Origin: Alphaproteobacteria bacterium
GTDB lineage: Bacteria; Pseudomonadota; Alphaproteobacteria; UBA2966
Reading direction: 5' to 3'
Length of the DNA stretch: 64,000 nt
Assembly: GCA_965242505.1 (NCBI GenBank)
Contig: OZ251449.1
Span: 2,803,843-2,867,842 of the forward strand
Position 1 is the stretch's first letter. Each line of letters starts with the position of its first letter. Shown here one piece after another: positions 4,200 through 61,660 of this stretch. The position numbers and the translations under genes are program-made. Under the pieces are notes generated by a model that saw only the letters and a list, made by a program, of their open reading frames with translations, was not told where the DNA came from and did no database searches.

Positions 4200-4615
4200 G
4201 GGGCCGAGGCTACACCGTCGCGGGGCCGTCCGCAAGCGCGCGTCCATGCGGACCCCCCTCCCCCCTCGTGTTTCTCCCTCCCCCCTGCCAGGGGGGAGGA
4301 GTGTGGATGGTCAGGGGGGAGGAGTGCGCGGGGCGAGGGTCGTTCGGCGGGTTCGGCTGGCGGTCCGGGCCTCGCGCGCCGCCATGGCCTCCTCCTGGCG
4401 GCGGAGCCTCTCCTCCTCGTAGCGGCGTTCGTCTCGGCCTCGCGTTTCCGCCTCATGTCTTCGTTGAAGCGGTCCATCCCGCGGAGGTCACGGCAGATGC
4501 CGATGATGATGATGACGTAGACGGCGACGGCGGCGGCCGCGATCCAGACGCCGGCGGTCGAGATCCAGTGGATCGTGTGTTGCGCGGTGAGGATGGCCTG
4601 TTCGGGCTCGGTCAT
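4190..4615 (-). CDS. Small membrane protein (the first 70 aa or so are convincing); the C-terminal tail is read-through of the REP element
   Basis: AAGGGAGAcgccc-ATG RBS. MTEPEQAILTAQHTIHWISTAGVWIAAAAVAVYVIIIIGICRDL is a TM helix. Downstream residues (PPDHPHSSPLAGG) are a typical REP translation, so the true stop and extent are uncertain. Confidence 0.4.
   Translation of the reverse strand: MTEPEQAILTAQHTIHWISTAGVWIAAAAVAVYVIIIIGICRDLRGMDRFNEDMRRKREAETNAATRRRGSAARRRPWRRARPGPPAEPAERPSPRALLPPDHPHSSPLAGGREKHEGGGGSAWTRACGRPRDGVASAPWP
4255..4340. repeat. REP-like palindromic elements (type A core CTCCCCCCTG(C/T)CAGGGGGGAG), 2 copies
   Basis: ctcccccctgccaggggggaggagtgtggatggtcaggggggaggagtgcgcgggg. 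The same family recurs across the window. Confidence 0.7.
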
Positions 4616-11441: not shown

Positions 11442-11888
11442 TCACCACGGTTTGACGACGACGACGACGACGGTCGCGATCAGGAGCAGCGTGGGGACCT
11501 CGTTCGCCGCGCGGTAGAAGTTCCGCGAACGGCGGTTGGCGTCGTCCGCGAAGCGCCTCCGCCACCGGGCGAAAAGCCCGTGGACGGCCGTCATGGCGGC
11601 GATCAGCGCCGCCTTCGCCCAGGGCCACGCGTCCGACCAGTCGACGACCCCCGGAGTCACGGCCAGCGCGCCGCCGAACAGGAAAGCGCAGAGCATCGCC
11701 GGGTTCATGACGCCCCGCAGCAGCCTGCGCTCCATCGTCTTGAAGGTCTCCGACTGCGCGGACCCCGCCTCCGCGTCGCAGTGATAGACGTAGAGGCGCG
11801 GCAGGTAGAGCATGCCCGCCATCCACGCGATCACCGAAACGACGTGGAGGGCCTTGATCCACAGGTAGGCGCCGGCGAGCCAGGTCAC
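11442..11888 (-). CDS. hemJ: Protoporphyrinogen IX oxidase HemJ (148 aa)
   Basis: ..AYLWIKALHVVSVIAWMAGMLYLPRLYVYH.. is the HemJ signature. The GTG start overlaps the hemH stop (GTGA). It is the third gene of the hemE-hemH-hemJ unit. Confidence 0.8.
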   Translation of the reverse strand: MTWLAGAYLWIKALHVVSVIAWMAGMLYLPRLYVYHCDAEAGSAQSETFKTMERRLLRGVMNPAMLCAFLFGGALAVTPGVVDWSDAWPWAKAALIAAMTAVHGLFARWRRRFADDANRRSRNFYRAANEVPTLLLIATVVVVVVKPW

Positions 11889-12964
11889 GCGCCGCCCCCC
11901 TCGCCGGCCGCGGCCATGGCGCAGCGGACGAAGGCCCCGGGGCACGTCCGGCCGCCGGTCGCCGACCGGATCCGGCGGACCGGACCGGCCGCGCCGGCGC
12001 CGTCCTCCGGCGGGCCGGCGGCCAGCGCGGCCAGCCCCTCCATGAACTTCGGGTGGGTCCGGACCGCGGCCGCCCGTTCGTAGGCCGGCGCGCCGGCCGA
12101 TTCGGCCAGCCGCCGATACTGGATATCGAGCTCCACGAGAGTCTCCGAATGTTCGGAGACGAACGAGACGGGGACGACGACGATCGGCAGGCCCTCCGCC
12201 CCGGCGCGCTCGGTCTCCGCCGCCGTGTCCGGTCCGATCCATCGCAGCGGACCCACGCGGCTCTGGTAGCACACGACCCAGGACCCCGCCGCGACGTTCG
12301 CCTTCCCGGCCACCGCCGCCGCCGTCCGCTCGACCTGCCACCGGTACGGGTCGCCGCCGGCGACGACCCGCCGCGGCAGGCCGTGCGCCGAGAACAGGAC
12401 GCGCGGTTCCCGCCCGCCGCTCGCCAGGGCGCACCGCGACATCGCTTCCGCAAGGGTCTCCGCCTGGGCCGAGACGAAGCCCTCGTCGGTCGGGTAGCAG
12501 CACACGGCCGTCGTGGGCGCGTCGATCCCCGCGGCCCGCGCGGCCCGCCGCCACGCCTCCAGCGCCGACGCCGTCGTCGTCGTCGAGAACTGCGGGTAGA
12601 GGGGCAGCAGGCGCACCCGGTCGGGCGCGTAGCGGGCCACGTCGCGCGCCGCCTCCTCGCTGAAGGGACGCCAGTGGCGCATCGCGACGAAGACGCGGTA
12701 CTCCCCGCGCCCGTCCAGAACGCCCTGCAACGCCTGCGCCTGCGCCCGGGTCTCCTTGAGGATCGGCGACGCGCCGCCCAGCTCGGCGTAGATCCGGGCC
12801 GCCTCGGGCGCCCTGCGCCTCGCGATCCACCGCGCGAGCGGAACCCGCAGGGGACCCGGCATCCGCAGGATCGCGGGATCCGCGAAGAGGTTGGCCAGGA
12901 AGGGGCGCACGGCCGCAGGACCGTCCGGCCCGCCCAGATTGAACAGGACCACCGCCGTCTTCAA
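11885..12964 (-). CDS. hemH: Ferrochelatase (359 aa)
   Basis: (M)KTAVVLFNLGGPDGPAAVRPFLANLFADPAIL..., ...YQSRVGPLRWIGPDT... The probable TTG start overlaps the hemE stop (TTGA), and there is no in-frame ATG or GTG nearby. Confidence 0.85.
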   Translation of the reverse strand: MKTAVVLFNLGGPDGPAAVRPFLANLFADPAILRMPGPLRVPLARWIARRRAPEAARIYAELGGASPILKETRAQAQALQGVLDGRGEYRVFVAMRHWRPFSEEAARDVARYAPDRVRLLPLYPQFSTTTTASALEAWRRAARAAGIDAPTTAVCCYPTDEGFVSAQAETLAEAMSRCALASGGREPRVLFSAHGLPRRVVAGGDPYRWQVERTAAAVAGKANVAAGSWVVCYQSRVGPLRWIGPDTAAETERAGAEGLPIVVVPVSFVSEHSETLVELDIQYRRLAESAGAPAYERAAAVRTHPKFMEGLAALAAGPPEDGAGAAGPVRRIRSATGGRTCPGAFVRCAMAAAGEGGGA

Positions 12965-14025
12965 GACGCGCGCACCGCCGCCACCAGGTCCGCGACGTGC
13001 CCGGGCGGCGTCGTCTTGAGCACGCCATGCCCCAGGTTGAAGACGAACGGCCCCCGGCCGAGAACGGACACGATCTCCCGGGCGCGCGCGGCCATCGCCT
13101 CCCCGCCCTCCAGCAGCGCAACGGGATCGAGGTTCCCCTGCACGGCGCAGACGCCCTGAAGGACGTCCGCCGCCCAGCACAACGGAACCGAGCCGTCGAT
13201 GCCGACCGCGTCGACGCCCGTCGCCCTGGCATAGGCCTCGTATCCCGTCCCGGCGCCGCGCGGGAACCCGATGACGGGAACTCCGGGGCATCGCCGGCGC
13301 ACGCGCGAAACGATCTCCGCGACCGGCTCCACGCACCAGCGGACGAACTGCGCCGGCGGCAGGACCCCCGCCCAGGTGTCGAATATCTGGAGGACGTCGG
13401 CCCCGGCGTCGGCCTGGGCGGCGAGGTGCTCGGCGGTCGCGTCGACGAGGACGTCGACGAGCTCGCCGAACCCCCCTTCGTCAGAGAAGGCCCAGCCCTT
13501 CACGGCGGCGAAGTCGCGGCTGCTTCCCCCTTCCACCATGTAGGTCGCGACGGTCCACGGAGCGCCGGCGAACCCGATCAACGGGACCGCGTCCGGCAAC
13601 ACGAGGGACACCCGCTCCAGAACGGCGTACACGAACGACAGGCGCTCGCCGAGGCCGTCCCGGTCGAGACTCTTCAACCGTTCGCGCGAGCGGATGGCGT
13701 CCAGGACCGGGCCTCTCTCCTCCTCGAACCTCACGCCCTGCCCCAGGGCGTGGGGGACGACCAGGATGTCGGAGAAGACGATCGCGGCGTCCAGCCCGAA
13801 CCGCCGGACGGGCTGGAGCGTCGCCTCGGTCGCGAGCTCCGGCGAGCGGCACAGCGCGAGAAAGCCGCCGGCCGCCTTCCTGAGCTCCCGGTATTCGGGC
13901 AGATACCGGCCGGCCTGCCGCATCAGCCAGATGGGCGGCGGCGAGACGGCCTCGCCGCCGAGCGCCCTCAGGAGCGGCCCGCCGCGGTTCCCGGCGCGCG
14001 CGTTCGAACGAGCAGGCGTGTTCAT
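12961..14025 (-). CDS. hemE: Uroporphyrinogen decarboxylase (354 aa)
   Basis: MNTPARS...PPIWLMRQAGRYLPEYRELR... Upstream residues of the 836-aa track ORF are REP read-through and antisense IS. Confidence 0.9.
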   Translation of the reverse strand: MNTPARSNARAGNRGGPLLRALGGEAVSPPPIWLMRQAGRYLPEYRELRKAAGGFLALCRSPELATEATLQPVRRFGLDAAIVFSDILVVPHALGQGVRFEEERGPVLDAIRSRERLKSLDRDGLGERLSFVYAVLERVSLVLPDAVPLIGFAGAPWTVATYMVEGGSSRDFAAVKGWAFSDEGGFGELVDVLVDATAEHLAAQADAGADVLQIFDTWAGVLPPAQFVRWCVEPVAEIVSRVRRRCPGVPVIGFPRGAGTGYEAYARATGVDAVGIDGSVPLCWAADVLQGVCAVQGNLDPVALLEGGEAMAARAREIVSVLGRGPFVFNLGHGVLKTTPPGHVADLVAAVRAS

Positions 14026-14039
14026 CCATCGCAGGGTAA

Positions 14040-14410
14040 CGGTCGCGCGCCTGCTCCTCCAGCGGCTTCGTTCGCGCCCCGCTCCGCCGCCGCGACCCCC
14101 ACCCCGACCCTCCCCCTGCAAGGGGGAGGGAAAACGATCAGGGAAGGGAGGGGGAGGAGCCGTTGACGATGACGCCTCTCCCCCCCTGACCATTGATACT
14201 CCTCCCCCCTGACAGGGGGGTCCGCGCGGCCCCGCGACGCCGTTCGCGCTTCGCTCCACCGCCGTGACCCCCACCCCGACCCTCCCCCTGCAAGGGGGAG
14301 GGAGAACGATTGGGGAGGGAAAAGGGAAGGGGCCGTTGACGATGACGCCTCGCCCCCCCCCCTGACCATTCATACTCCTCCCCCCTGACAGGGGGGAGGT
14401 CGGGAGGGGG
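14040..14410. repeat. Cluster of 6 or more REP-like elements (types A and B alternating) between hemE and the IS
   Basis: gacccccaccccgaccctccccctgcaagggggagggaaaacg..., ctcccccctgacaggggggtccgcg..., repeated twice with about 170-bp periodicity. Confidence 0.75.
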
Positions 14411-19904: not shown

Positions 19905-20290
19905 GGCGCGACCCCCGCCCCGGTTCTCCCCCTGACGCGATCCACGCTCCTCCCCCTGGCCGTCCATACTCCTCCCCCCTGACAGGGGGGAGGTCGGGAG
20001 GGGGGTCCGCGGCCCCGCGACGCCGTTCGCGCTCGGCTCCACCGGCGTGACCCCCACCCCGACCCTCCCCCTGCAAGGGGGAGGGAGAAGAGAGGGGCGC
20101 CGGAGAGTCCGTCGGCGTTCCTTCCCGCTGACCGTTCATACTCCTCCCCCCTGACAGGGGGGAGGTCGGGAGGGGGGTCCGCGGCCCCGCGACGCCGTTC
20201 GTGATCGGCTCCACCGGCGTGACCCCCACCCCGACCCTCCCCCTGCAAGGGGGAGGGAGAAGAAAGGGGAGGGGGAAGGGGGACGGAGGG
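19905..20290. repeat. Cluster of about 6 REP-like elements (types A and B alternating, 2 composite units)
   Basis: ctcccccctgacaggggggaggtcgggagggggg...gacccccaccccgaccctccccctgcaagggggagggagaag... repeated. Confidence 0.75.
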
Positions 20291-49019: not shown

Positions 49020-51602
49020 TCAGTTCGACGGCGCCGTCACGCGGCACTCCTCCGCCTGGCAGGCGCCGAAGCTGCCGAACGCGGCCACACGCCGGTTCTG
49101 GTGGGTGGAGTCCGTCTCGATGCGCCACCAGCCGGCGGTTTCGAGCTTGTCCGCGGGACCGTAGAGGGCGCCGCCGTACTCGCCCTTGTTCCACGACGTA
49201 TCCCACGGGTCCGCATGGCCCGTGTAGCTGCCGTCGGCTGCGATGTCGCCCTCCGCCAACAGGATCGCGAACCCTTCATGGGAATGGCCATCCCCTCCGT
49301 TTCTGAGGAACTGGTTCTTCTGCCAGATGCCGTTTTCGAGCGCTTGCAGGTTGGCGACGTTACCCATGATCTTGTTGGCGCCGGTGGGAATGCCTTCGCC
49401 CGTGCAGGCGCCGGCGCCGATGCAGGCGTTGAGGGTCACGTCGCCCCGCAGGCGGGCGAAGTGGAGGACGTGCGGCGCGCTTTCGCTGCCCACCGAATTG
49501 CTCCTGGGATGCAGGATCATCCCCATGGTCCTGCCCCGGAACGTGGCCTCGATCGAGGTCGCGCGGTCGGTCGTCTTCGCGTCGTCCGCGTCGCGGAAGG
49601 CGTCGTAGCCGAAGTGGAAGCCCTGCAAGAGGCCCGGCCGGGGATACTCGTCGATGTAGTCGGTGTACATGAACAGGCCGTAGGCCGCATAGGACAGGTA
49701 ACGGTCGGCGTCGTCGCCCGCATCGTCCGCATCCGCGCCCGCGTCGAGGCCGCCATGGTTCGACAGCCAGACCCGGAGGTCGCCCAGCGCGCCATGGGCG
49801 GCGAGGCGGCGGCCGTCGCTGTCTTCGGGGTCGGGCTGGGGCTGGTTTCCGCTCAACCCGTAGCGCGAGGCCCAGTAGTAGTTGGGTTCGCCGTCGGGGT
49901 CGGCGTAGGGCGCGCCCCAGGAGATCTCCGCGTCGCTGCGGTTGAAGTCGTAGCAATACGCCGGATAGGCCCCGCTGCAATCGTCCGACATCACGTTGTT
50001 CCCGGAGTCCTGCGTCCCCCAGGCGCCCGGCGAGTTGATCCCGTCCCGGCCCCGGCTCGACGACCTGTCGAGGTCGTGCTTGAAGAGGCTCATGACGGCG
50101 CCTTCCCCGCCGGTCCTGAAGACCATGCCGTCGGGCGTGAAGCGGACCGAGCTGGTCACCGGATTCAGGTAATGGCGTTGGTAGCTACCCGACGGGGTGA
50201 TGGCGTTGCCGTCGGTGTCGGTCGTCGCGCCCTGGACGACCGGGATCTTCGGCGTGGCGCCGCCTTCGTCGTCGGTGGCGCCTTCGGGGCTGGGCCTGAT
50301 GTCGCCGCGCATGGAGACCGCCCGCAGCGGGAAGTGATCGCTCTCGCCCGTCGCGGCGGGCGAGAGCACCGTCTTGCCGGCGGCCCAGGCGACCGCCTCC
50401 GTCTGGATGTCCAGTCCGTTCGGGTTCGGGCAGGGCATGTTCACGGTGCAGTCGGCGAACGCCGCCTCCCTGGGCGTGAGCGTGACCCGCGCGGTGAAGG
50501 GCGCGCCCCCCGTCTGTCCGGGGGGGACCTGGTTCAGGATCGAGGGAGGGGCCGCCAACCCGGGGTCGGCGGCGATGCGGGTGGCGGCCCAGGCGCGCGT
50601 CGCGGTCTCGGCCGCCATCGCCGCCGCCGCCCCTGCGTCGGCCTCCGTCCGCTGGTCGTCCGTGGCCGCCGCGGCCAGAGCCGAGGCGGCAGCCGTTGCG
50701 AGCGCCGCCGCGGCCGTCCTCTCCGCCTCGCGCGCATTCACGAAGGCCGTCTGCGCGGCCGCCAGCGCCGTCTGCGCCGCCTGTCTCCGCGTCTGGGCGG
50801 CCTCGCGGTCCGCCGTTTTCCGTTCGTCCGTGGTGTCGCCGTCCCAGGCCGCGGCGGTCGCCTGGAAGTCCGCCTCCGCCTTCTCCAGGGCCGCCTGGGC
50901 CGCCGCCAGCGCCGTCCCGGCCTGCCCGGTCGCGGCCTGCGCCGCCGTCAAACCGGTCTGCGCCGAACGCAACGCCTCCTCCTCCGCTGTCGGAGTCGGC
51001 GGCTCCGGCGCCGCCGGCGGTCGCGCTCGCGCTTCGGCCAGTTCCTCGCGCAGCAGCGGCACCAGGGAGACTTGAGCGGTGGTCAGCAAGCCCTGGGCCT
51101 GCAACAGCACGGTTTCGACCGCGTCGGTGGGGTTGGCCTCCAGCGCCGCGGTTATCTGGGTCTGGGCGGCGTCCAGCGCCGCCTGCGCCTGGTCCAGCGA
51201 CGTGTGCGCGCTGTCGAAGGAAACGGTCCCCCCCGACCCGAACGCCGTATTGGTCGTATCCAGGGCCGCGATGACCGCCCCCAAGGCGTTGTCGACCACC
51301 ATCAGCACCGTGCGGACATTCTCCGGCAGCTGCGGCAGATTATCCCGGAGATTATCCCGGCCCTCGTTCAGCTTCTCGCGGGCTTCCGGGCGCCGTTCGG
51401 GGTTGGTGGCCGCCGCCAGCGAGTCGCGAAGGTCCGCCAGCGCGGTTTCGGCGGCTGCCGTCTTCTGCCTCTCGGCCTCGAGGGTGTCCTCGCCGATGCG
51501 CACCGTCCTGGTTTCGGTGCAGGCGCCCAGCGCCAGAGCCATGCCGCAAATCAACACCGCCGTAAGTCTGGAGATCGTCATCGAACGGGAACCCCCCCTC
51601 AT
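49020..51602 (-). CDS. Large surface-type lipoprotein (about 853-860 aa): signal/lipobox, Ala-rich coiled-coil N-terminal half, C-terminal TbpB/fHbp-like beta-barrel domain
   Basis: (MRGGSRS)MTISRLTAVLICGMALALGAC has the lipobox LGAC. Residues about 30-330 are Ala/Gln/Thr-rich helical repeats. The C-terminal about 250 aa (..GFAILLAEGDIAADGSYTGHADPW..YGGALYGPADKLETAGWWRIE..AAFGSFGA) resemble the 8-strand barrel or handle of TbpB/HpuA/fHbp-type surface lipoproteins (family recalled from memory). A 958-aa antisense shadow ORF lies opposite. Confidence 0.7.
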   Translation of the reverse strand: MRGGSRSMTISRLTAVLICGMALALGACTETRTVRIGEDTLEAERQKTAAAETALADLRDSLAAATNPERRPEAREKLNEGRDNLRDNLPQLPENVRTVLMVVDNALGAVIAALDTTNTAFGSGGTVSFDSAHTSLDQAQAALDAAQTQITAALEANPTDAVETVLLQAQGLLTTAQVSLVPLLREELAEARARPPAAPEPPTPTAEEEALRSAQTGLTAAQAATGQAGTALAAAQAALEKAEADFQATAAAWDGDTTDERKTADREAAQTRRQAAQTALAAAQTAFVNAREAERTAAAALATAAASALAAAATDDQRTEADAGAAAAMAAETATRAWAATRIAADPGLAAPPSILNQVPPGQTGGAPFTARVTLTPREAAFADCTVNMPCPNPNGLDIQTEAVAWAAGKTVLSPAATGESDHFPLRAVSMRGDIRPSPEGATDDEGGATPKIPVVQGATTDTDGNAITPSGSYQRHYLNPVTSSVRFTPDGMVFRTGGEGAVMSLFKHDLDRSSSRGRDGINSPGAWGTQDSGNNVMSDDCSGAYPAYCYDFNRSDAEISWGAPYADPDGEPNYYWASRYGLSGNQPQPDPEDSDGRRLAAHGALGDLRVWLSNHGGLDAGADADDAGDDADRYLSYAAYGLFMYTDYIDEYPRPGLLQGFHFGYDAFRDADDAKTTDRATSIEATFRGRTMGMILHPRSNSVGSESAPHVLHFARLRGDVTLNACIGAGACTGEGIPTGANKIMGNVANLQALENGIWQKNQFLRNGGDGHSHEGFAILLAEGDIAADGSYTGHADPWDTSWNKGEYGGALYGPADKLETAGWWRIETDSTHQNRRVAAFGSFGACQAEECRVTAPSN

Positions 51603-51886: not shown

Positions 51887-52029
51887 ATGACCCTATCCTA
51901 TCACGAACGACGCCGCAAGGTCAAGATTCGTCCCGGTTCAATACATAAACATACGAACATATGAGACGCCGCGCAGGCCGCATTGTCTCATGCCGGGGGT
52001 GGGCCGAGGATCGCGCGGCGTTGCGGGGC

Positions 52030-52100
52030 GACGGAGACCCCCCTCCCGACCTCCCCCCTGTCAGGGGGGAGGAGTGTGGATGGTCAGGGGGGAGGAACGC
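52030..52100. repeat. REP-like element (type A)
   Basis: cccccctcccgacctcccccctgtcaggggggaggagtgtggatggtcaggggggagg. Confidence 0.7.
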
Positions 52101-52169
52101 CGCTGGACCCCCGCGGGCCGGTCCGGCATTATCGACCGCGAACGGACTGCGCAGGGAGGACTGGCGGCC

Positions 52170-52943
52170 ATGGCGAGGCTGGACGGAAAGGTCGCGCTGA
52201 TCACCGGCGCGGGGGCGGGCATCGCGCGCGAGGCGTGCCGCCTCTTCGCGAACGAGGGCGCCGGGGTCGGCGTCGTCGAGATCGACCCGGAGACGGGCGG
52301 ACGGACCGCCGACGCGATCAGGGCGGACGGCGGCAGGGCGGTGGCCATCCAGGCCGACGTCACCCTGCCCGACGACGTCGAGCGCGCCGTCGCGCGGACC
52401 GTCGAGGCCTTCGGCAGGCTCGACGTCCTCTACAACTGCGCCGGCGGCTCCGCGCCCCCCGACGACTCCGTGACCGAGATGCCGATCGAGGCCTGGGACC
52501 GCAGCATCAGGCTGGACCTCTACGGCACGTTCCTCGGCTGCCGCTTCGGCATCCCGGAACTGAGGAAGGTCGGCGGCGGCTCGATCATCAACATGAGCTC
52601 GGTGATGAACTTCCTCGGCGAGATGCGCGGCTTCCCGCCGCGGCATTCCTATTCCGCCGCCAAGGGCGGCGTTTCGGCGCTCACCCGCTGCGTCGCGGCC
52701 GAGTACGCCAGGGACAACATCCGCTGCAACGCCATCGCGCCCTGTTTCGTGGAGACCGACCGCAACGTCGCGGTGAAGGCGGGCTGGACCAACGAGACGA
52801 CCGCCACCGTTCTCCGCCAGCACCCCCTGGGCGCCGGCCGGCCGATCGACATCGCCAACGCGGCGCTGTACCTGGCCTCCGACGAGTCGCGTCTGGTCAA
52901 CGGCGTCATCCTTTCCGTCGACGGCGGCATGGTGGTGACCTGA
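52170..52943 (+). CDS. SDR-family oxidoreductase (257 aa)
   Basis: GGGAGG RBS. MARLDGKVALITGAGAGIAREA.. is the TGxxxGxG motif. ..NCAG.. and ..YSAAKGGV.. form the YxxxK catalytic pair. ..PCFVETD.. Confidence 0.85.
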   Translation: MARLDGKVALITGAGAGIAREACRLFANEGAGVGVVEIDPETGGRTADAIRADGGRAVAIQADVTLPDDVERAVARTVEAFGRLDVLYNCAGGSAPPDDSVTEMPIEAWDRSIRLDLYGTFLGCRFGIPELRKVGGGSIINMSSVMNFLGEMRGFPPRHSYSAAKGGVSALTRCVAAEYARDNIRCNAIAPCFVETDRNVAVKAGWTNETTATVLRQHPLGAGRPIDIANAALYLASDESRLVNGVILSVDGGMVVT

Positions 52944-53006: not shown

Positions 53007-53639
53007 TCACCGTGAAACAGCCTCCCGCACGGGCCGGAACGAACGCCGGTGGTGAGGGGTCGGCCCGAGGGCGTCGAGCGCCCGGGCGTGTTCCGGCGCG
53101 CCGTAGCCGGCGTTGCGTTCCCAGCCGTAGCCGGGATACAGCCGCGCCAGCCGCCGCATGATCCGGTCGCGGGTCTCCTTGGCGACGATCGACGCCGCCG
53201 CGATGGAGAGCGAGCGTGAATCGCCGCCGACGACCGCCCGGGCGGGGCAGGCGAGAACCGGCAGGCGGTTGCCGTCCACCAGGGCGTAGGAGGGCGGCGT
53301 CGCGAGCGCCTCGACGGCCCGCCGCATGGCCAGCATCGTGGCCTGGAGGACGTTCAGGGAGTCGATCTCGCCGACGCTGGCCTCGCCGACGCCGACGGTC
53401 GCCGACGCCCGGATTCGCTCGCACAACTCGGCCCGGCGTTCGCGCGACAGGCGTTTGGAATCGTCGATCCCGTCCGGCGCGCGGTCCGCGGGAAGGATCA
53501 CGGCGGCGGCGACGACCGGTCCGGCCCAGGGGCCCCGTCCGGCCTCGTCGATGCCGGCGACGGGCGGCGGCAGGGAAGCCTCCAGGGAGAGATCGGGCGC
53601 GGCGCGCGGCGGGGGCGCATCCACCGTCGCCGTGACCAT
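53007..53639 (-). CDS. rnhB: Ribonuclease HII (about 210 aa)
   Basis: ..[35 protein letters not shown]...[18 protein letters not shown]... are RNase HII catalytic DEDD-context motifs. The start was taken at MVTATV; the ORF is continuous in frame with the upstream domain. Confidence 0.8.
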
Positions 53640-54194
53640 CGCCGCCGCGTCCGGGGCGCGCGCCGCGATGGCCACCGTCGCCGTCACCGCTCCGGGCGCG
53701 GCGTCCGTCACCGTCATCGTCTCCATCGCCGGGGCCGGGGCCGCGAGAGGCCCCCGCTCCGCCTCGCCGCGGAACCTCCGGGCCGCAGCCGGGAACATGT
53801 CCGCCGCAGCGGCCTCCGGAGCCGGGGTCGGCGCCGGAGGCCGGTAGTTGTCGCGGTAGCGTTCCGGGCGGTGGGCCTTGAGCAGGAACATGGCCAGGGC
53901 GTCCGAATAGTGGCGCGTCGTCCCCACCTGCTCCCCCTTATGCCAGACCGGCTTCTCCACCCCCTCGAAGGCGCGGCGGTGGAGCATGGCCTCCAGCAGG
54001 TCGATGCCGTCGTCGAGGGCGTCGTTCCACCTGCGGGCGAAGTCGGGGTCGGCGTCGCGCCAGTCGTAGACGGTGCGTCTGGGGACGCCGGCGTCGCGGC
54101 AGGCGGCGGCGACGTTGACGGTGTCGGCGAGGGCGTGGAGGAAGGCGCGTTTGCGGCGCGGGCGTTTGTCGGCGGCGGCGGTGTCGTCGTGCAT
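53640..54194 (-). CDS. Terminase-small-subunit-like HTH domain protein, in frame with rnhB (no intervening stop) through a Pro/Ala-rich linker
   Basis: The RBS GGGAGAcgacccc-ATG is the motif shared by other genes here. [91 protein letters not shown].. resembles phage small-terminase / homeodomain-like HTH proteins. It is not clear whether this is a real fusion or an independent gene. Confidence 0.4.
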
Positions 54195-54299
54195 GGGGTC
54201 GTCTCCCGTTCCGGTGTGGAAACAATATGGGAACATACGCGATGCGAGTCAAGAGGAAAATTCCGATATGGAGAAAAAATCTCTACGGCCGTGATTCGT

Positions 54300-54770
54300 C
54301 TCCGTTGGGGGGCGGGTTCGGCGCGCCGATCCGCACACTTCGCACACCTTCCGGGACCTCGTTCTCCCTCTCCTGTTCTCCCTCTCCCTTCCAATCCGCA
54401 CACCTCGCACACCGGCAGGGACCCCCCTCCCGACCTCCCCCCTGCCAGGGGGGAGGAGTTTGAAAGGGGATCCGCACACTCCGCACACCCTCCCGTCCTT
54501 TTTATTTCTCCCTCTCCCTTGCAGGGGGAGGGTCGGGGTGGGGGTCACCGGCGTTGCGGCGGGGCGCGTCCATCCGGACCCCCCTCCCGACCTCCCCCCT
54601 GTCAGGGGGGAGGAGTATGGATGGGCAGGGGGAGAAGTGTGGATGGGCAGGGGGGAGGAGTTTGAAAGGGGATCCGCACACTCCGCACACCCTCCCGTCC
54701 CTTTTATTTCTCCCTCCCCCTGGCAGGGGGAGGGTCGGGGTGGGGGTCGCGCCGATCCGCACACTCCGCA
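54300..54770. repeat. Cluster of 7 or more REP-like elements (types A and B), including a duplicated block of about 170 bp
   Basis: tctccctctcccttcc..., cccctcccgacctcccccctgccaggggggaggagtttgaaaggggatccgcacactccgcacaccctcccgtcc...ccctctcccttgcagggggagggtcggggtgggggtc; the block at 54400-54560 recurs at 54590-54760. Confidence 0.75.
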
Positions 54771-56167: not shown

Positions 56168-56284
56168 GACCCTGCCCCGTGACGGTCGCGGCGGCCGGCG
56201 CGCGACGCTCGACCCGCACCCTACCCGAACCCGGCGGTCGGGGGAAGGGATCGCGCGCCGGAGCGGCGGACGGCGCCCTCAGTC

Positions 56285-56440
56285 GTCCAGGGTCCGTTCG
56301 CGCTCCTCTCCCCCGGCGCGACCCCCACCCCGACCCTCCCCCTGCAAGGGGGAGGGAGAACGAGGGGGACGGGGGGCCGTTGACGCTCCTCCCCCCTGAC
56401 AGGGGGGAGGTCGGGACGGGGGTGGATCGCGATCCCGCAA
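56285..56440. repeat. REP-like elements (type B, type A)
   Basis: gacccccaccccgaccctccccctgcaagggggagggagaacgagggggacgg...cctcccccctgacaggggggaggtcgggacggggg. Confidence 0.7.
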
Positions 56441-56482: not shown

Positions 56483-58009
56483 TCAGTCGTCCAAGGTCCG
56501 CGCGACGCGGAACCCGAAGTTGTCGTTGCGGTACTCCAGCGGGAACCGGACCCGCTTGGCGGAGCGGACGTCCTTCGGATGGCTCCTCCAGGAACCGCCG
56601 CGCATGACGCGATGCCCGCAGTTTCCGCTCAACCTCGGCGATCCGTCGGCGGGCGCGCCCCGGTAGCTGTCGTTCCAGCAGTCCTCGACCCACTCCCAGG
56701 CGTTTCCGTGAACGTCGTGCAGTCCGAAGGCGTTCGGCGGGAACCCGCCGACGGGCAGCGTCCGCTTCCGGTACGCGCCCGTCCCGCCCTCTCCATACGA
56801 CGACGTCCCGTTGTAGTTCGCCTGGTCCGGCGTGATCGTCGAACCCGTGTGGAACGGCGATCGACCGCCCGCCCGGGCGGCGTATTCCCATTCCGCTTCG
56901 CTGGGCAGGCGATAGGCCCGGCCCGTCTTCTCGCCGAGCCACGCGGCGTAGGCCCGCGCCGTGTTCCAGTCGACGCAGACGGCGGGATCGTCCTCGCCCT
57001 GCGGATATCCGGGATCGCGCCAGCTCTTCGAGGAGTCCCGGCGTCCGCCCGAGCCGGTTCGCACGTAGCAGGAATCTCCCGCGTCGTGCCCCGTCTCCTC
57101 GACGAAGGCCGTGAACTCCCTTCGCGTCACCTCGAACCGGCCGATGGCGAACGCGGCCACGGCGACCTCGCGCGCCGGTCCCTCCGCGGCGTCGCGGGCC
57201 GATTCGCCCGGCGGCGAACCCATGACGAACGCGCCGCCCGGCGCCGTCACCATCTCCGGACACGTCTCGCAGTCCCTGAACGCCGCGCCCGGCGGCCGGT
57301 CCGGCAACGACAGCATCAGGAAGGCCGCGAGGCCGCCGAGGGCCAGGAGCGACGCGCCCGACCATGCGAGCCGCCACCCGGGGATACGGACGGGTCCCGC
57401 GGCCAGGGGGACGAGGTCCCGCGCGCCGGCGGCCGGGACGGCCGCGGGCTCCAGCCCCACGTGGCGCAGGACCTCGTTGGCGTCGCGGACGCCCAGGACC
57501 TCGCCGATGCCGGACGCGCCGTGATCGGCGGCGTCTTCCAGGTTCGCCGCGGGAACGACCAGCGTCACGGGAGCGGAGCCTTCCGCGGCGCGGCCGGCGA
57601 AACGCTCCCGCGTCGCGCGGAGCTTCTCCCCGACGAAATCCACCTCCCCCACCCGCAGATCGACGTCGACGGTCCCCGTGGCCCACAGGACCGCGTCCGC
57701 GCTTTCGCCGGGCCCCGCCAGGCGCCCCGCCCGGTCCAGCGCGTGCGCGACCAGTACGGACAGCTGCCAGGAGTGGCCGTCGCCGATCTCGCCGGAGGCG
57801 TCCAGCCGGAAGCCGCCGGGCCCGAAGGGGCCCAGGGCCCGCTCGATCACGCCCGAGGGCTGGCGCACGAACGCGTCGTAGTCGGCGCTGATGGGCAGGA
57901 CCGACGTCGTCCGGCCCAGGCAGATCTGCGAGACGGGCGCCGCCTCGCGCGTGATCCGCTCGATCTGAACGGGTCCCCTGGTGGTCGCGGCGAAGACGTG
58001 GACCTTCAT
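56483..58009 (-). CDS. Membrane protein: cytoplasmic N-terminal domain of unknown type (about 250 aa), single TM helix, and a periplasmic FGE-sulfatase (SUMF1/EgtB/PvdO-type) domain; 508 aa; third gene of an uncharacterized operon
   Basis: MKVHVFAATTRGPVQIERIT..GDGHSWQLSVLVAHAL.. is the N-domain, with no family recognised. WSGASLLALGGLAAFLMLSL is the TM helix. ..FVMGSPPGE...FAIGRFEVTRREFTAFV..AVCVDWNTARAYAAWL..YRLPSEAEWEYAARAG..GNAWEWVEDCW..RVMRGGSW.. is the FGE-sulfatase fold. The ATG overlaps the upstream stop (ATGA). Confidence 0.7.
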   Translation of the reverse strand: MKVHVFAATTRGPVQIERITREAAPVSQICLGRTTSVLPISADYDAFVRQPSGVIERALGPFGPGGFRLDASGEIGDGHSWQLSVLVAHALDRAGRLAGPGESADAVLWATGTVDVDLRVGEVDFVGEKLRATRERFAGRAAEGSAPVTLVVPAANLEDAADHGASGIGEVLGVRDANEVLRHVGLEPAAVPAAGARDLVPLAAGPVRIPGWRLAWSGASLLALGGLAAFLMLSLPDRPPGAAFRDCETCPEMVTAPGGAFVMGSPPGESARDAAEGPAREVAVAAFAIGRFEVTRREFTAFVEETGHDAGDSCYVRTGSGGRRDSSKSWRDPGYPQGEDDPAVCVDWNTARAYAAWLGEKTGRAYRLPSEAEWEYAARAGGRSPFHTGSTITPDQANYNGTSSYGEGGTGAYRKRTLPVGGFPPNAFGLHDVHGNAWEWVEDCWNDSYRGAPADGSPRLSGNCGHRVMRGGSWRSHPKDVRSAKRVRFPLEYRNDNFGFRVARTLDD

Positions 58010-58557
58010 CCGTCGATGAATATCTCGCTTCCGGGGTCGCGAAGCGCCGCCAGCACGTCCGACCCGTTCTCGACGAGGATCTGGATCGTTCCGGCATGGG
58101 GCTCCGGCAGCGCGATCCGGCGGCACGTGTCGTCGCCGACGAACACCGCCAGCCATCTCGGATGACGGCCCGGCTCGTCCAGGGAGATGACGACGTAGGT
58201 CTGCGCCGGTTCGGCGCGCGACTGCTCGAAGCGGATGCGGCAGCCGGGGGCGGCGCGGCGCGCGACGGTCCCCGCCGCCGCCGCCGCGAGCTCGGGGATG
58301 CGATAGCCGGCGATCTTTCCGGTGAGGCGCCGCAGTTCGGCGCGAAGCGCGGGACTCTCGCGCAGCGCGGCCTCGAGGCCCGGGTCTTCGGCGCGCGCGC
58401 CGGTGACGTAGAGGTACAGGCGCCGCGGGGTGACGCGCCCGCCGGGCGCCGCGCCGGCGGCGGGGCTGCCCAGCGACGCTTCCGCCACGAGCGCGTCGAA
58501 CACGCGTTCCGCGACCGCGAGGGCGTCGTCTCCGGGCGTCTCGATCCGTTCGTTCAT
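58006..58557 (-). CDS. Hypothetical protein (183 aa), middle gene of the operon
   Basis: MNERIETPGDDALAVAERVFDALVAEASLG..RLYLYVTGARAEDPGLEAALRESPALRAELRRLTG..YVVISLDEPGRHPRWLAVFVGDDTCRRIALPEPHAGTIQILVENGSDVLAALRDPGSEIFIDG. It is the C-terminal part of a 690-aa, otherwise Arg-rich, track ORF. ATGA overlaps at both ends. Confidence 0.5.
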   Translation of the reverse strand: MNERIETPGDDALAVAERVFDALVAEASLGSPAAGAAPGGRVTPRRLYLYVTGARAEDPGLEAALRESPALRAELRRLTGKIAGYRIPELAAAAAGTVARRAAPGCRIRFEQSRAEPAQTYVVISLDEPGRHPRWLAVFVGDDTCRRIALPEPHAGTIQILVENGSDVLAALRDPGSEIFIDG

Positions 58558-60065
58558 CGCGCGACTCCGTAGATGCGGGCGAACTGTTCGCTGAACACGC
58601 CGCGGTCGCGGGCGAACCGGCCGTCGAGACCGGCCTCGTCCTCCTCCGCCCGTTCGGATACCCGCAGGAATGCGCGGATCTGGTCGCTGATCGTCGCCAG
58701 CGCCCCGGCGCCGGCCTCGTACAGGGCGTCCGATCCGGGCCGGCCCACGACCGTGTTCTCGAATCCCTTGCGCGAGAGTCCCGCGAAGGCGCGCTTCGCG
58801 AGGTCGCGCGCGACCCGCGACCGCTCGTCCCCGGGAACCCGTTCCGCGTCCTCGTCCGCCCGCAGCGCCACGTGCAGCGCCGCGCGCAGCGCGTCGTTGA
58901 CGCGCGCGTCCAGCGCGGCGAGCCGCTGGCGCCATTCCCGGTACGTCTCGGCGCCGGCGCAGGCGACGAGCTCGTTCAGGGCGTCGCCGGCGTCCCGCCG
59001 CCTCGCGGCCTGCGACAGCCGGGCCTGGACGTCTCCGAAGACCTCGGCGCGCATCAGGGACCACGGCAGCCGGCGCGCCCGCGGGCCGTGCTCCATCAGA
59101 CGGTCCAGGGCGGCCAGGTCCACCTTGTTCAGGAACCGGACGCCATCGAGAGGCTGCTCCCGCAGGAGCGAAAGCGGGGACGCCCACGCGGCGGTCGTCT
59201 CCGCGTCGTCCAGGAGCCGGGCGACGTCGACCTCGCCCGCCTCGCGGTCGGGGCCGACCGGACGGGCGCGTTCGACGGCCTCGCGGTCCATCGCGACGTC
59301 GAGGGCCGAAAGGAACGCCATGTAGGCGTCGAACACGCTTCGGAACAGACGGAAGTTCCTCGCCTCGTCGTCCACGGACTTCTCCCGCCAGAACGCCAGG
59401 ACCGTGGCGTCCTCGACGACCAGCGTCGCCGCCCCGGACCTCGCGTAGTCGAGCAGCTCCCGGAACTTGCCCTGCGTCTGGATGCTCGGCAGGTGCTCCC
59501 TCAGGTACGCGTACAGGCGCCGTTCGATCCCGTTCGCCGCGTCCCGGACACCGCTGCCCGTCACCGGCGGCTTCAGCATGGCCTGGAACTCGTCGTCGAC
59601 GGCGGCGTAGCCGACGGCGCCGCAGAGGAACTCGAACAGGGCGGCGAGGACCGGCATCCCGGAGAAGCCGACGTTGAAGACGCCGTCGTCGTAGCGCGCG
59701 GCGACCCCCTCCGCCGTCAGCTCGCATCCGGGACGCCGCCAGCCCGAGGCGGCCACGGCGTTCTCTATCCAGCCCCGGAACCCGGGACCGGTGGCGCGTT
59801 CCGGCCCCAGCAGCAGATGTTCGTAGGAACCGCGGCGCGGCGCGCACGAGTCGGCCACGTTGACCAGGTGGCACAGTTGCAGGACGGGCGCGGCGTAGGA
59901 CCGGCAGACGATCAGCCGGTTGAGGCGGCGGCACGCCCTGGCGGAATAATGGGCGGCGCCGTCCGGGGTCGTGGAGTCCGCCACCGCGCGGAGGGCGGCG
60001 CGCAACTCGCCGCTCTGTCCCGCCTCCAGGACGAGGCTCGCCGCGCGTTTCACTTCGAGCGACAT
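58554..60065 (-). CDS. Hypothetical protein (503 aa), first gene of the operon
   Basis: MSLEVKRAASLVLEAGQSGELRAALRAV... Composition and codon usage are normal (not an Arg/Pro shadow). No Walker or other motif was recognised. The stop overlaps the next ATG. Confidence 0.6.
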   Translation of the reverse strand: MSLEVKRAASLVLEAGQSGELRAALRAVADSTTPDGAAHYSARACRRLNRLIVCRSYAAPVLQLCHLVNVADSCAPRRGSYEHLLLGPERATGPGFRGWIENAVAASGWRRPGCELTAEGVAARYDDGVFNVGFSGMPVLAALFEFLCGAVGYAAVDDEFQAMLKPPVTGSGVRDAANGIERRLYAYLREHLPSIQTQGKFRELLDYARSGAATLVVEDATVLAFWREKSVDDEARNFRLFRSVFDAYMAFLSALDVAMDREAVERARPVGPDREAGEVDVARLLDDAETTAAWASPLSLLREQPLDGVRFLNKVDLAALDRLMEHGPRARRLPWSLMRAEVFGDVQARLSQAARRRDAGDALNELVACAGAETYREWRQRLAALDARVNDALRAALHVALRADEDAERVPGDERSRVARDLAKRAFAGLSRKGFENTVVGRPGSDALYEAGAGALATISDQIRAFLRVSERAEEDEAGLDGRFARDRGVFSEQFARIYGVAR

Positions 60066-60249: not shown

Positions 60250-60498
60250 ATGCCGTTCTACAAACCGGACCTCGGCGCCAACCCCGACGACCCGTTCGCC
60301 CGCGACGCCGACGGCAGGCTGGTCAGGCGGACGTTCTGGCTCGACATGAGCGACCGCTCCCTGGCGCTCGCCATGACCCGGGGGGTCGGCGCCGCTCTGA
60401 CCGCGGCGGAGAAGCGCGCCCATCTCGAGGACGTCGGCCGTTCCCACCTGATCGACGAGGTCTGCGCGCCGGAGATCCTGCCGCCCGAGCGCGGCTGA
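60250..60498 (+). CDS. Small hypothetical protein (82 aa), divergent from the operon
   Basis: GGAGGGAGCATCC-ATG. MPFYKPDLGANPDDPFARDADGRLVRRTFWLDMSDRSLALAMTRGVGAALTAAEKRAHLEDVGRSHLIDEVCAPEILPPERG. Confidence 0.45.
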   Translation: MPFYKPDLGANPDDPFARDADGRLVRRTFWLDMSDRSLALAMTRGVGAALTAAEKRAHLEDVGRSHLIDEVCAPEILPPERG

Positions 60499-60519
60499 CG
60501 CGGCGCGGCGGGCCGGGGC

Positions 60520-61660
60520 CGTATGCGCTCCTCTCCCCTGCCGTGACCCCCACCCCGACCCTCCCCCTGCAAGGGAGAGGGAGAACAAGAGGGGACGGGA
60601 AAGGGCCATTGACGCTCCTCCCCCCCTGACCATCCATACTCCTCCCCCCTGACAGGGGGGAGGTCGGGAGGGGGGTCCGCGGCCCCGCAACGCCGTTCGC
60701 GCTCCGCTCCCCTGGCGTGACCCCCACCCCGACCCTCCCCCTGCAAGGGGGAGGGAGAAGAAGGGGGGACGCGGAGGGAGCCGTCGACGCTCCTCCCCCC
60801 TGACAGGGGGGAGGTCGGGAGGGGGGTCCGCGGCCCCGCAACGCCGTTCGCGCTCCGCTCCCCTGGCGCGACCCCCACCCCGACCCTCCCCCTGCAAGGG
60901 GGAGGGAGAACGTAAGGGGACGCGGAGGGAGCCGTCGACGCTCCTCCCCCCTGACCATCCATGCTCCATCCCCCCCTGCCCCCCTGACCATCCATACTCC
61001 TCCCCCCTGACAGGGGGGAGGTCGGGAGGGGGGTCCGCGGCCCCGCAACGCCGCCGTTCGCGCTCCGCTCCTCTGGCGTGACCCCCACCCCGACCCTCCC
61101 CCTGCAAGGGAGAGGGAGAACAAGAGGGGACGGGAAAGGGCCATTGACGCTCCTCCCCCCTGACCATCCATGCTCCATCCCCCCTGACCATCCATACTCC
61201 TCCCCCCTGACAGGGGGGAGGTCGGGAGGGGGGTCCGCGGCCCCGCAACGCCGCCGTTCGCGCTCCGCTCCCCTGGCGCGACCCCCACCCCGACCCTCCC
61301 CCTGCAAGGGAGAGGGAGAACAAGAGGGGACGGGAGGAGGGCGGACCGCGGCCCCGCAACGCCGTTCGCGCTCCGCTCCCCTGGCGGGACCCCCACCCCG
61401 GCCCTCCCCCTGCAAGGGAGAGGGAGAACAAGAGGGGACGGGAGGGGGGTGGACGCGGCCCGCAACGCCGTTCGCGCTCCGCTCCTCTGGCGTGACCCCC
61501 ACCCCGGCCCTCCCCCTGCAAGGGAGAGGGAGAAGAAGGGGGGAGGTCGGGAGGGGGGTGGACGCGATCCTGCAACGCCGTTCGCGCTCCGCTCCCCTGG
61601 CGTGACCCCCACCCCGACCCTCCCCCTGCAAGGGGGAGGGAGAACGTAAGGGGATGGAGG
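60520..61660. repeat. About 1.1-kb tandem array of 7 or more composite REP/BIME-like units (each about 110-210 bp, holding one type B and one type A palindrome plus a conserved linker ccgcggccccgcaacgccgttcgcgctccgctcccctggcg)
   Basis: The units start at about 60523, 60675, 60826, 61039, 61237, 61348, 61448 and 61570. Some carry an extra insert, ctgaccatccatgctccatcccccctgaccatccatactcc. No unique spacers are present. Confidence 0.85.

Follow-up and report, generated by a model that had tools for sequence, protein, structure and literature searches.

A 64,000-nucleotide stretch of an alphaproteobacterial genome (contig OZ251449.1, positions 2,803,843 to 2,867,842), referred to here as the window, carries on its minus strand three adjoining genes that we call A, B and C. 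Gene A occupies positions 58554–60065 (503 amino acids, aa), gene B 58006–58557 (183 aa) and gene C 56483–58009 (508 aa), and at both junctions the stop and start codons overlap as ATGA (gcgcgATGAacg between A and B, gacggATGAaggtc between B and C). Gene C encodes a predicted single-pass membrane protein that combines a Lon-fold domain, a transmembrane helix and a domain with the fold of the formylglycine-generating enzyme (FGE); its start was placed at the ATG at 58009, which lies within a longer open reading frame (ORF) of 557 aa and is common to homologues. A first-pass annotation of this DNA had reported three minus-strand genes of 503, 183 and 508 aa, joined by ATGA overlaps and ending in an FGE fold—a description that proved accurate.

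Because the G+C content of the window is ~73%, long spurious ORFs are abundant in it, yet the three genes are conspicuous against this background. A scan for promoters and terminators, together with Rfam, gave no signal in the operon or its surroundings.

Conservation and gene order

A word-indexed search returned 34 homologues of A. When 1.84 billion cluster representatives were scanned in full with HMMER, 897 matched at E ≤ 1e-3, of which 490 reached E ≤ 1e-30; among the best 150 of the 897, most measured ~500–560 aa. Loci (numbered L001 onwards) were fetched through A homologues and then through a genome scan seeded with the conserved N-terminal domain of C, which contributed a further 22; every one of these came from Alphaproteobacteria, most of them from Rhodospirillaceae-like metagenome-assembled genomes. 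A, B and the N-terminal domain of C adjoin in constant order in 25 of 28 loci, the other three being contigs that end too early for the order to be judged.

The same order recurs in three cultured organisms: Magnetospira sp. QH-2 (L030 8008–11119, FO538765.1), where the trio lies within a full extended operon described below; Nisaea acidiphila (L031 7717–10981, CP102480.1), where a bare trio stands among housekeeping genes; and Methylobacterium aquaticum MA-22A, where it is carried on a megaplasmid (L029 6033–9149, equivalent to NZ_AP014706.1 410480–413596). The Methylobacterium proteins are remote homologues, with hhalign probabilities of 99.6 (A), 97.3 (B) and 98.7% (C), and their genes are flanked by caspase-Sel1, Trypsin_2 and OmpA genes; this trio also accounts for the one weak match obtained when the N-terminal domain of C was compared with plasmids.

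Nearly all loci keep, at both junctions, an overlap of either 4 nt (NTGA) or 1 nt (TGATG) across ~30–91% protein identity, and the identity of A, B and C among relatives ranges from ~27–35% up to 91%. Values of dN/dS against the closest relatives lie between 0.15 and 0.67. The genes are real, beyond chance ORFs, and under purifying selection, and together they form a co-translated module that is widely conserved in Alphaproteobacteria. The obligate co-expression proposed from the window is thus borne out by the retention of gene order and stop/start overlaps in essentially all related loci; non-synteny and non-conserved overlaps, named beforehand as outcomes that would count against it, are both contradicted by the relatives.

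The sequence records read describe the trio products as hypothetical or in equally uninformative terms, except for Magnetospira C (‘DUF4384 domain-containing protein’), and the name ‘ThiS’ attached to one of them is an evident JGI misannotation. None of the three proteins belongs to a housekeeping family, and Pfam, NCBIfam and PADLOC gave no significant match outside the FGE domain. The literature collection searched holds no description of the module, to which two orphan families are attached, along with an envelope operon that lacks annotation.

Protein C

Residues 1–183 of C (57461–58009, minus strand) are predicted to form a cytoplasmic domain with the Lon protease fold and no AAA+ module. 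An AlphaFold model of residues 1–238, made from a 40-sequence alignment (pLDDT 92), places this domain within the Lon proteolytic-domain fold; the figures listed for the model are 15.3 for M. jannaschii Lon, 14.9 for E. coli Lon, 14.7 for RadA, 12.9 for BrxL, 12.7 for ComM, 10.8 for CalpL and 8.1 for birnavirus VP4. When a profile of the C family was compared with PDB sequences, all 20 of 20 matches were Lon proteases, each of them marginal (E 0.0038–0.7). The profile alignment sets T111-G112 of C on the Lon ‘TG’ and K129 on the lysine of GGVTQK in A. fulgidus Lon; the Lon ‘TG...GGxxxK’ segment carries the catalytic lysine, and we take Lys129 to be the counterpart of that residue.

Lys129 (AAG, 57623–57625, minus strand), invariant and aligned to the Lon lysine, is accordingly our candidate general base, and the candidate nucleophile is Ser80 (TCC, 57770–57772, minus strand), which sits at the N-terminus of a helix within GDGHSWQL, in a Lon-like DGxS context. 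Ser80, His89, Gly112 and Lys129 are invariant in alignments of 40 and of 24 sequences, and Ser80, His89 and Lys129 are kept in the remote Methylobacterium homologue. No ATPase or AAA+ domain was found in C by Pfam or in the AlphaFold model, and Pfam, NCBIfam and PADLOC gave no significant match for residues 1–249. On the strength of the model and the conserved residues, the domain is probably active as a protease. The ~250-aa cytoplasmic part had earlier been thought to hold no recognisable motif, a view that gives way to a predicted Lon fold with a conserved Ser/Lys pair, whereas the layout of one transmembrane helix followed by an FGE domain stands; C is therefore probably a sensor-protease and not a plain sensor.

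The single transmembrane helix is assigned to residues 211–234 (57308–57379, minus strand), a hydrophobic stretch that is helical in the AlphaFold model and is flanked by a charge of +1 on its N-terminal side and −1 on its C-terminal side. A hydrophobic segment occupies the equivalent place in the C homologues from L004, L005 and L029. Residues 250–504 (56498–57262, minus strand) make up an apparently non-catalytic, PvdO-like FGE-fold domain, which Pfam FGE-sulfatase (PF03781) matches with an E-value of 1.5e-64 over model positions 2–255 of 255. The best solved relative of residues 241–506 is PvdO (5hha, E 3.3e-60), itself a periplasmic protein. C is best read as a single-pass protein with its N-terminus inside and its C-terminus outside, so oriented that the outer domain would lie in the periplasm.

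In comparison with human FGE (1y1e), Cys336 is replaced by serine (ggsymC versus ggswrS) and Cys341 falls opposite a gap; FGE catalysis was rejected because both catalytic cysteines are absent. The NCBIfam PvdO model (NF051459) scores C at 246 bits against a cutoff of 500, and C lies below the NCBIfam equivalog cutoffs for PvdO, GldK, EgtB, SenA and OvoA by wide margins. The FGE-fold domain is therefore best read, from its sequence, as a binding domain and not as an FGE, in line with the sensor role suggested for it in the first-pass annotation, where the state of its Cys/His metal ligands had been put forward as a check.

Across lineages, the Lon domain and the membrane helix of C stay constant and the outer domain varies. 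Only the window, L007, L008 and L009 have FGE joined to C; Magnetospira C has DUF4384 as its outer domain, and most other homologues have an unassigned outer domain of ~180 aa with conserved cysteines (xCAAVxF...LCGL). The possibility that this last domain is a diverged DUF4384 was examined and set aside (hhalign probability 0.2%). FGE is thus not the conserved heart of the system and is limited to the lineage of the window. Elsewhere, the same domains turn up in genes beside C: a caspase-SH3-FGE gene lies close downstream of or right after C in L001–3 and is represented in L024 by two adjacent ORFs (caspase; SH3-FGE), and DUF4384-OmpA and DUF4384 proteins are encoded near C in L018 and L024. 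This recurrence ties FGE and DUF4384 functionally to C, and outer domains that swap in this way are what one would expect of an exchangeable module for input or targeting.

Proteins A and B

A is a cytoplasmic, mostly helical protein belonging to an orphan family. No hydrophobic segment was found in the two homologues examined, and no significant relative was detected in Pfam, NCBIfam, PADLOC or PDB sequences, or at the level of the fold. The only domain fusion seen in the family is in L005 (3657–5756), where a DnaG-type CHC2 zinc ribbon (Pfam E 1.5e-35) is joined to the N-terminus of the A homologue.

B homologues sit between A and C in every locus. B has no NCBIfam match and no significant Pfam, PADLOC or PDB-profile match; its sequence pattern suggests helices in the N-terminal half and strands in the C-terminal half, with an alanine-rich linker between the two. 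In the window, the family alignment places this linker at residues 90–96 (LAAAAAG; 58270–58290, minus strand). Its consensus, [VL]AAA[SA][ST]G, is kept in 24 loci at 30–45% overall identity, with A92 and A93 invariant, and it survives as AAAASDG in the remote Methylobacterium B. In L022, B has a four-residue insertion directly after the motif, as expected of an exposed linker. We infer, by analogy with the Calp system discussed below, that the linker is a putative cleavage site.

Extended operon in relatives

The trio is enclosed in a same-strand operon of 12–13 genes in 13 of the loci (12 of them distinct: L004, L005/L006, L010, L011, L013, L015–L018, L020, L022, L027) and in Magnetospira (L030). 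This operon spans 6264–17912 in L018, where its tight gene packing was read, 7041–16921 in L004, 2047–12558 in L005 and 6707–15803 in L030. It opens with genes for a 140-aa transmembrane protein and a lytic transglycosylase (SLT), followed by A, B and C; then come, often, an OmpA/DUF4384 protein, a 190-aa lipoprotein, a 300-aa coiled-coil secreted protein and a 130-aa secreted protein; and it closes with a 170-aa four-transmembrane protein, a 160–230-aa bitopic protein, a 300–410-aa proline-rich bitopic protein and a 220–240-aa lipoprotein. SLT lies directly upstream of A in ~17 loci.

The operon products carry signal peptides, lipoboxes or transmembrane segments and, other than SLT, OmpA and DUF4384, gave no significant Pfam or PHROG match. 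MotA_ExbB (PF01618) was matched by three of eight members of the four-transmembrane family, with a best E-value of 0.047 that is below threshold, and this protein had no PDB profile match; ExbD-like and TonB-like readings, the latter of the proline-rich bitopic protein, were made by eye from architecture only. Genes for trypsin-like proteins, subtilases and caspases are frequent neighbours of the trio. None of the extra operon genes occurs in the 64-kb window or within 8–10 kb of the trio in L007 and L008. Since the trio stands bare in the window, L007, L008 and Nisaea, it is the conserved core and is able to stand alone.

Proposed mechanism

By analogy with the CRISPR-associated Calp system, A, B and C may constitute a transmembrane, Calp-like proteolytic switch built on a membrane-anchored, ATPase-less Lon-fold Ser/Lys protease, C—the reading that we prefer, if tentatively. 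Under this proposal, the periplasmic domain of C would bind an envelope ligand or partner; binding would activate the cytoplasmic protease, probably through clustering of the kind seen in CalpL filaments; the protease would then cut B at AAA↓(A/S)(S/T)G; and cleavage of B would free or activate the orphan-fold A. The monitored target would lie in the cell wall or envelope, to which the neighbours found in relatives point: lytic transglycosylase, OmpA/DUF4384 proteins, lipoproteins, periplasmic caspase-SH3-FGE, trypsin and subtilase.

A broader version of this proposal strikes us as possible yet rather doubtful. A, B and C would be the control unit of an undescribed alphaproteobacterial trans-envelope system, in which interchangeable outer domains would read a periplasmic or peptidoglycan event, a dedicated adaptor would be cut and an orphan effector of ~500 aa would be released; in many genomes this unit would be wired to the 12–13-gene envelope machine, possibly driven in a MotA/ExbB-like manner.

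The likeness to CalpL, CalpT and CalpS lies in the protease fold and in the logic of the relay, and the B linker [VL]AAA[SA][ST]G resembles the CalpT site: with its Ser154/Lys195 dyad, CalpL cleaves the LAAA sequence of CalpT between A204 and A205 (10.1101/2024.05.08.593097). The differences are substantial. CalpL senses cA4 through a cytoplasmic SAVED domain, whereas C has a membrane helix and a periplasmic domain, and Pfam and PADLOC found no SAVED domain in it; CalpS is an extracytoplasmic function (ECF) sigma factor, whereas A is an orphan fold; and no cas genes were present among the called genes of the listed loci or the window ORFs checked. As sensor, partner proteins and context all differ, membership of the Calp system is not claimed.

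C also stands apart from the other systems that its domains recall. The holoenzymes LonA, LonC and the membrane-anchored archaeal LonB contain an AAA+ or AAA-like module; C has none, its protease domain is N-terminal, ahead of the membrane helix, and its sequence similarity to Lon proteases (MEROPS S16) is marginal at best (E 0.0038). The Lon-fold domains of RadA/Sms, ComM and BrxL are C-terminal appendages of DNA-acting ATPases or helicases, and RadA has lost its catalytic pair; C, in contrast, has no ATPase and an invariant Ser/Lys pair. Birnavirus VP4, a Lon-related enzyme that cuts at A-x-A↓(S/A)-G-type sites, processes its own viral polyprotein and is much less like C than cellular Lon is. 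PvdO acts in the pyoverdine pathway as a free periplasmic protein, whereas the outer domain of C is part of a membrane protease; the flanking genes that were checked include none for pyoverdine. For the non-catalytic, C-type-lectin-like FGE folds known as FGS domains, a role in binding has been proposed (PMC7159879).

Several observations weigh against a Calp-like switch. Ser80 is equated with the Lon catalytic serine from fold and position only, and neither the Pfam Lon_C model nor the NCBIfam Lon models match C at E ≤ 1; Lon-fold domains occur also as non-proteolytic modules, in RadA and ComM. A has no detectable similarity to sigma factors and B has none to CalpT, and at 73% genomic G+C alanine-rich stretches are common in proteins. 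Moreover, the trio lies in a much larger operon in about half of the loci, so that it may be part of a machine and not an autonomous relay.

Were the mechanism true, ATPase-less Lon-fold proteases would act as signal-transducing switches across a membrane, a switching role that has so far been documented in CRISPR-associated Calp (10.1101/2024.05.08.593097). It would also give a first clue to the function of two sizeable orphan families, of which A alone comprises ~900 clusters at 50% identity, and the findings point to a conserved, unannotated envelope operon of a dozen genes in marine and freshwater Alphaproteobacteria. With three cultured carriers—Magnetospira sp. QH-2, Nisaea acidiphila and Methylobacterium aquaticum MA-22A—the hypothesis is directly testable.

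Alternative explanations

The larger operon lends itself to another explanation, which we regard as unlikely: the trio would be the cytoplasmic and inner-membrane base of a trans-envelope apparatus encoded by the 12–13 genes, with the Lon fold serving as an assembly ring or a processing protease and the copy in the window being a reduced remnant or having its partners elsewhere. Such an apparatus would be in keeping with the packed operon in 12 distinct loci and Magnetospira, with the signal peptides, lipoboxes and transmembrane segments of its products, with the weak MotA_ExbB matches in three of eight four-transmembrane proteins, with the SLT gene directly upstream of A, and with the rings that Lon-fold domains form in Lon, RadA and ComM. 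It fits less well with the lack of the extra genes in the window and around the trio in L007 and L008, and with Nisaea acidiphila, where the trio is maintained with no partner genes beside it; MotA/ExbB and TonB-like are assignments that are sub-threshold or made by eye, and the invariant Ser/Lys pair favours catalysis.

An anti-phage or conflict system, in which a ligand-binding FGE (‘FGS’) domain would relay an outside trigger to a Lon-type protease effector of the CalpL or BrxL kind and A would be a toxic effector, seems to us improbable. Lon-fold proteases do act in CRISPR-Calp and BREX (10.1101/2024.05.08.593097 for Calp), and FGS domains and caspases recur in predicted conflict systems (PMC7159879). 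In addition, several loci have caspase, trypsin and subtilase genes next to the trio, Methylobacterium carries its copy on a megaplasmid and the outer domain differs between lineages. Against these points, the best PADLOC matches (PADLOC-DB 2.0) for all three proteins had E-values of 0.05–0.07 and scores of 10–11 bits; no relative of the C N-terminal domain was found in IMG/VR viral contigs, and none of 72,556 plasmids carries A; PHROGs matched neither the A and B homologues of L004 nor the operon genes scanned. Metabolic or housekeeping genes surround the trio in the window and in most loci, synteny of the locus is kept across relatives, and a periplasm-facing sensor would be unusual for phage sensing. 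The earlier suggestion of a defence module thus finds no support, given the non-significant PADLOC matches, the lack of viral relatives and the housekeeping neighbours.

That C is primarily an enzyme by virtue of its FGE fold—generating formylglycine, oxidising a chromophore as PvdO does or synthesising sulfoxides in the manner of EgtB, with A and B as accessories—is very improbable despite the strong FGE-sulfatase match and the E-value of 3.3e-60 to PvdO, as both FGE catalytic cysteines are missing (which largely refutes FGE itself), the PvdO, EgtB, SenA, OvoA and GldK cutoffs are missed widely, and most homologues have unrelated domains in place of FGE, with no such change in A, B or the Lon domain.

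Genomic surroundings

Repetitive extragenic palindromic (REP) elements lie on both sides of the operon, in an array of ~1.2 kb upstream of A (60444–61659), the largest of the window, and in a cluster downstream of C (56219–56423); both are context and not part of the module. The REP palindrome CCCCCTGNNAGGGGG gave 49 strand-hits at ~17 intergenic sites across the window, where none is expected. Two alternating REP types built on CCCCCTG(NN)AGGGGG can be seen, for example, at 4281, 6923, 14112–14395, 19975–20253, 54438–54730 and 60645–61636. The bracketing of the operon by REPs noted in the first-pass annotation is therefore genuine as far as the flanking palindromes go, yet it is not specific to this operon. 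The accompanying idea that the operon is accessory or recently rearranged DNA does not hold, given REPs throughout the window and a locus that is syntenic, together with its TauD neighbour, down to ~70% DNA identity; REP arrays were rejected as markers of mobile DNA because they are widespread and the flanks are syntenic.

The small divergent gene that had been noted upstream of the operon is present at 60250–60498 on the plus strand, where it encodes 82 aa behind a strong ribosome-binding site (GGAGGGAG). It is found at 88–93% protein identity only in L007 and L008, the two closest relatives, does not accompany the module in other lineages and has no Pfam match; on these grounds of lineage specificity and lack of a family, it was rejected as a member of the module.

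At lower window coordinates, two large minus-strand ORFs (49020–51602, 860 aa; 51921–52823, 300 aa) have no Pfam match at E ≤ 0.01. A third (53007–54236, minus strand, 409 aa) combines a helix-turn-helix like that of the phage Sf6 small terminase subunit (residues 24–129) with RNase HII (residues 227–402), the two domains being separated by a linker rich in Ala and Pro; the choice here is between a genuine fusion and an ORF that runs too far in this high-GC DNA. The neighbours of the trio in the window are genes for a TauD-family dioxygenase, a tautomerase, RNase HII and an FAD oxidoreductase. Relative to the window and L007, the closest relative, L008, has ~2.6 kb (11539–14169) inserted between C and the TauD gene.

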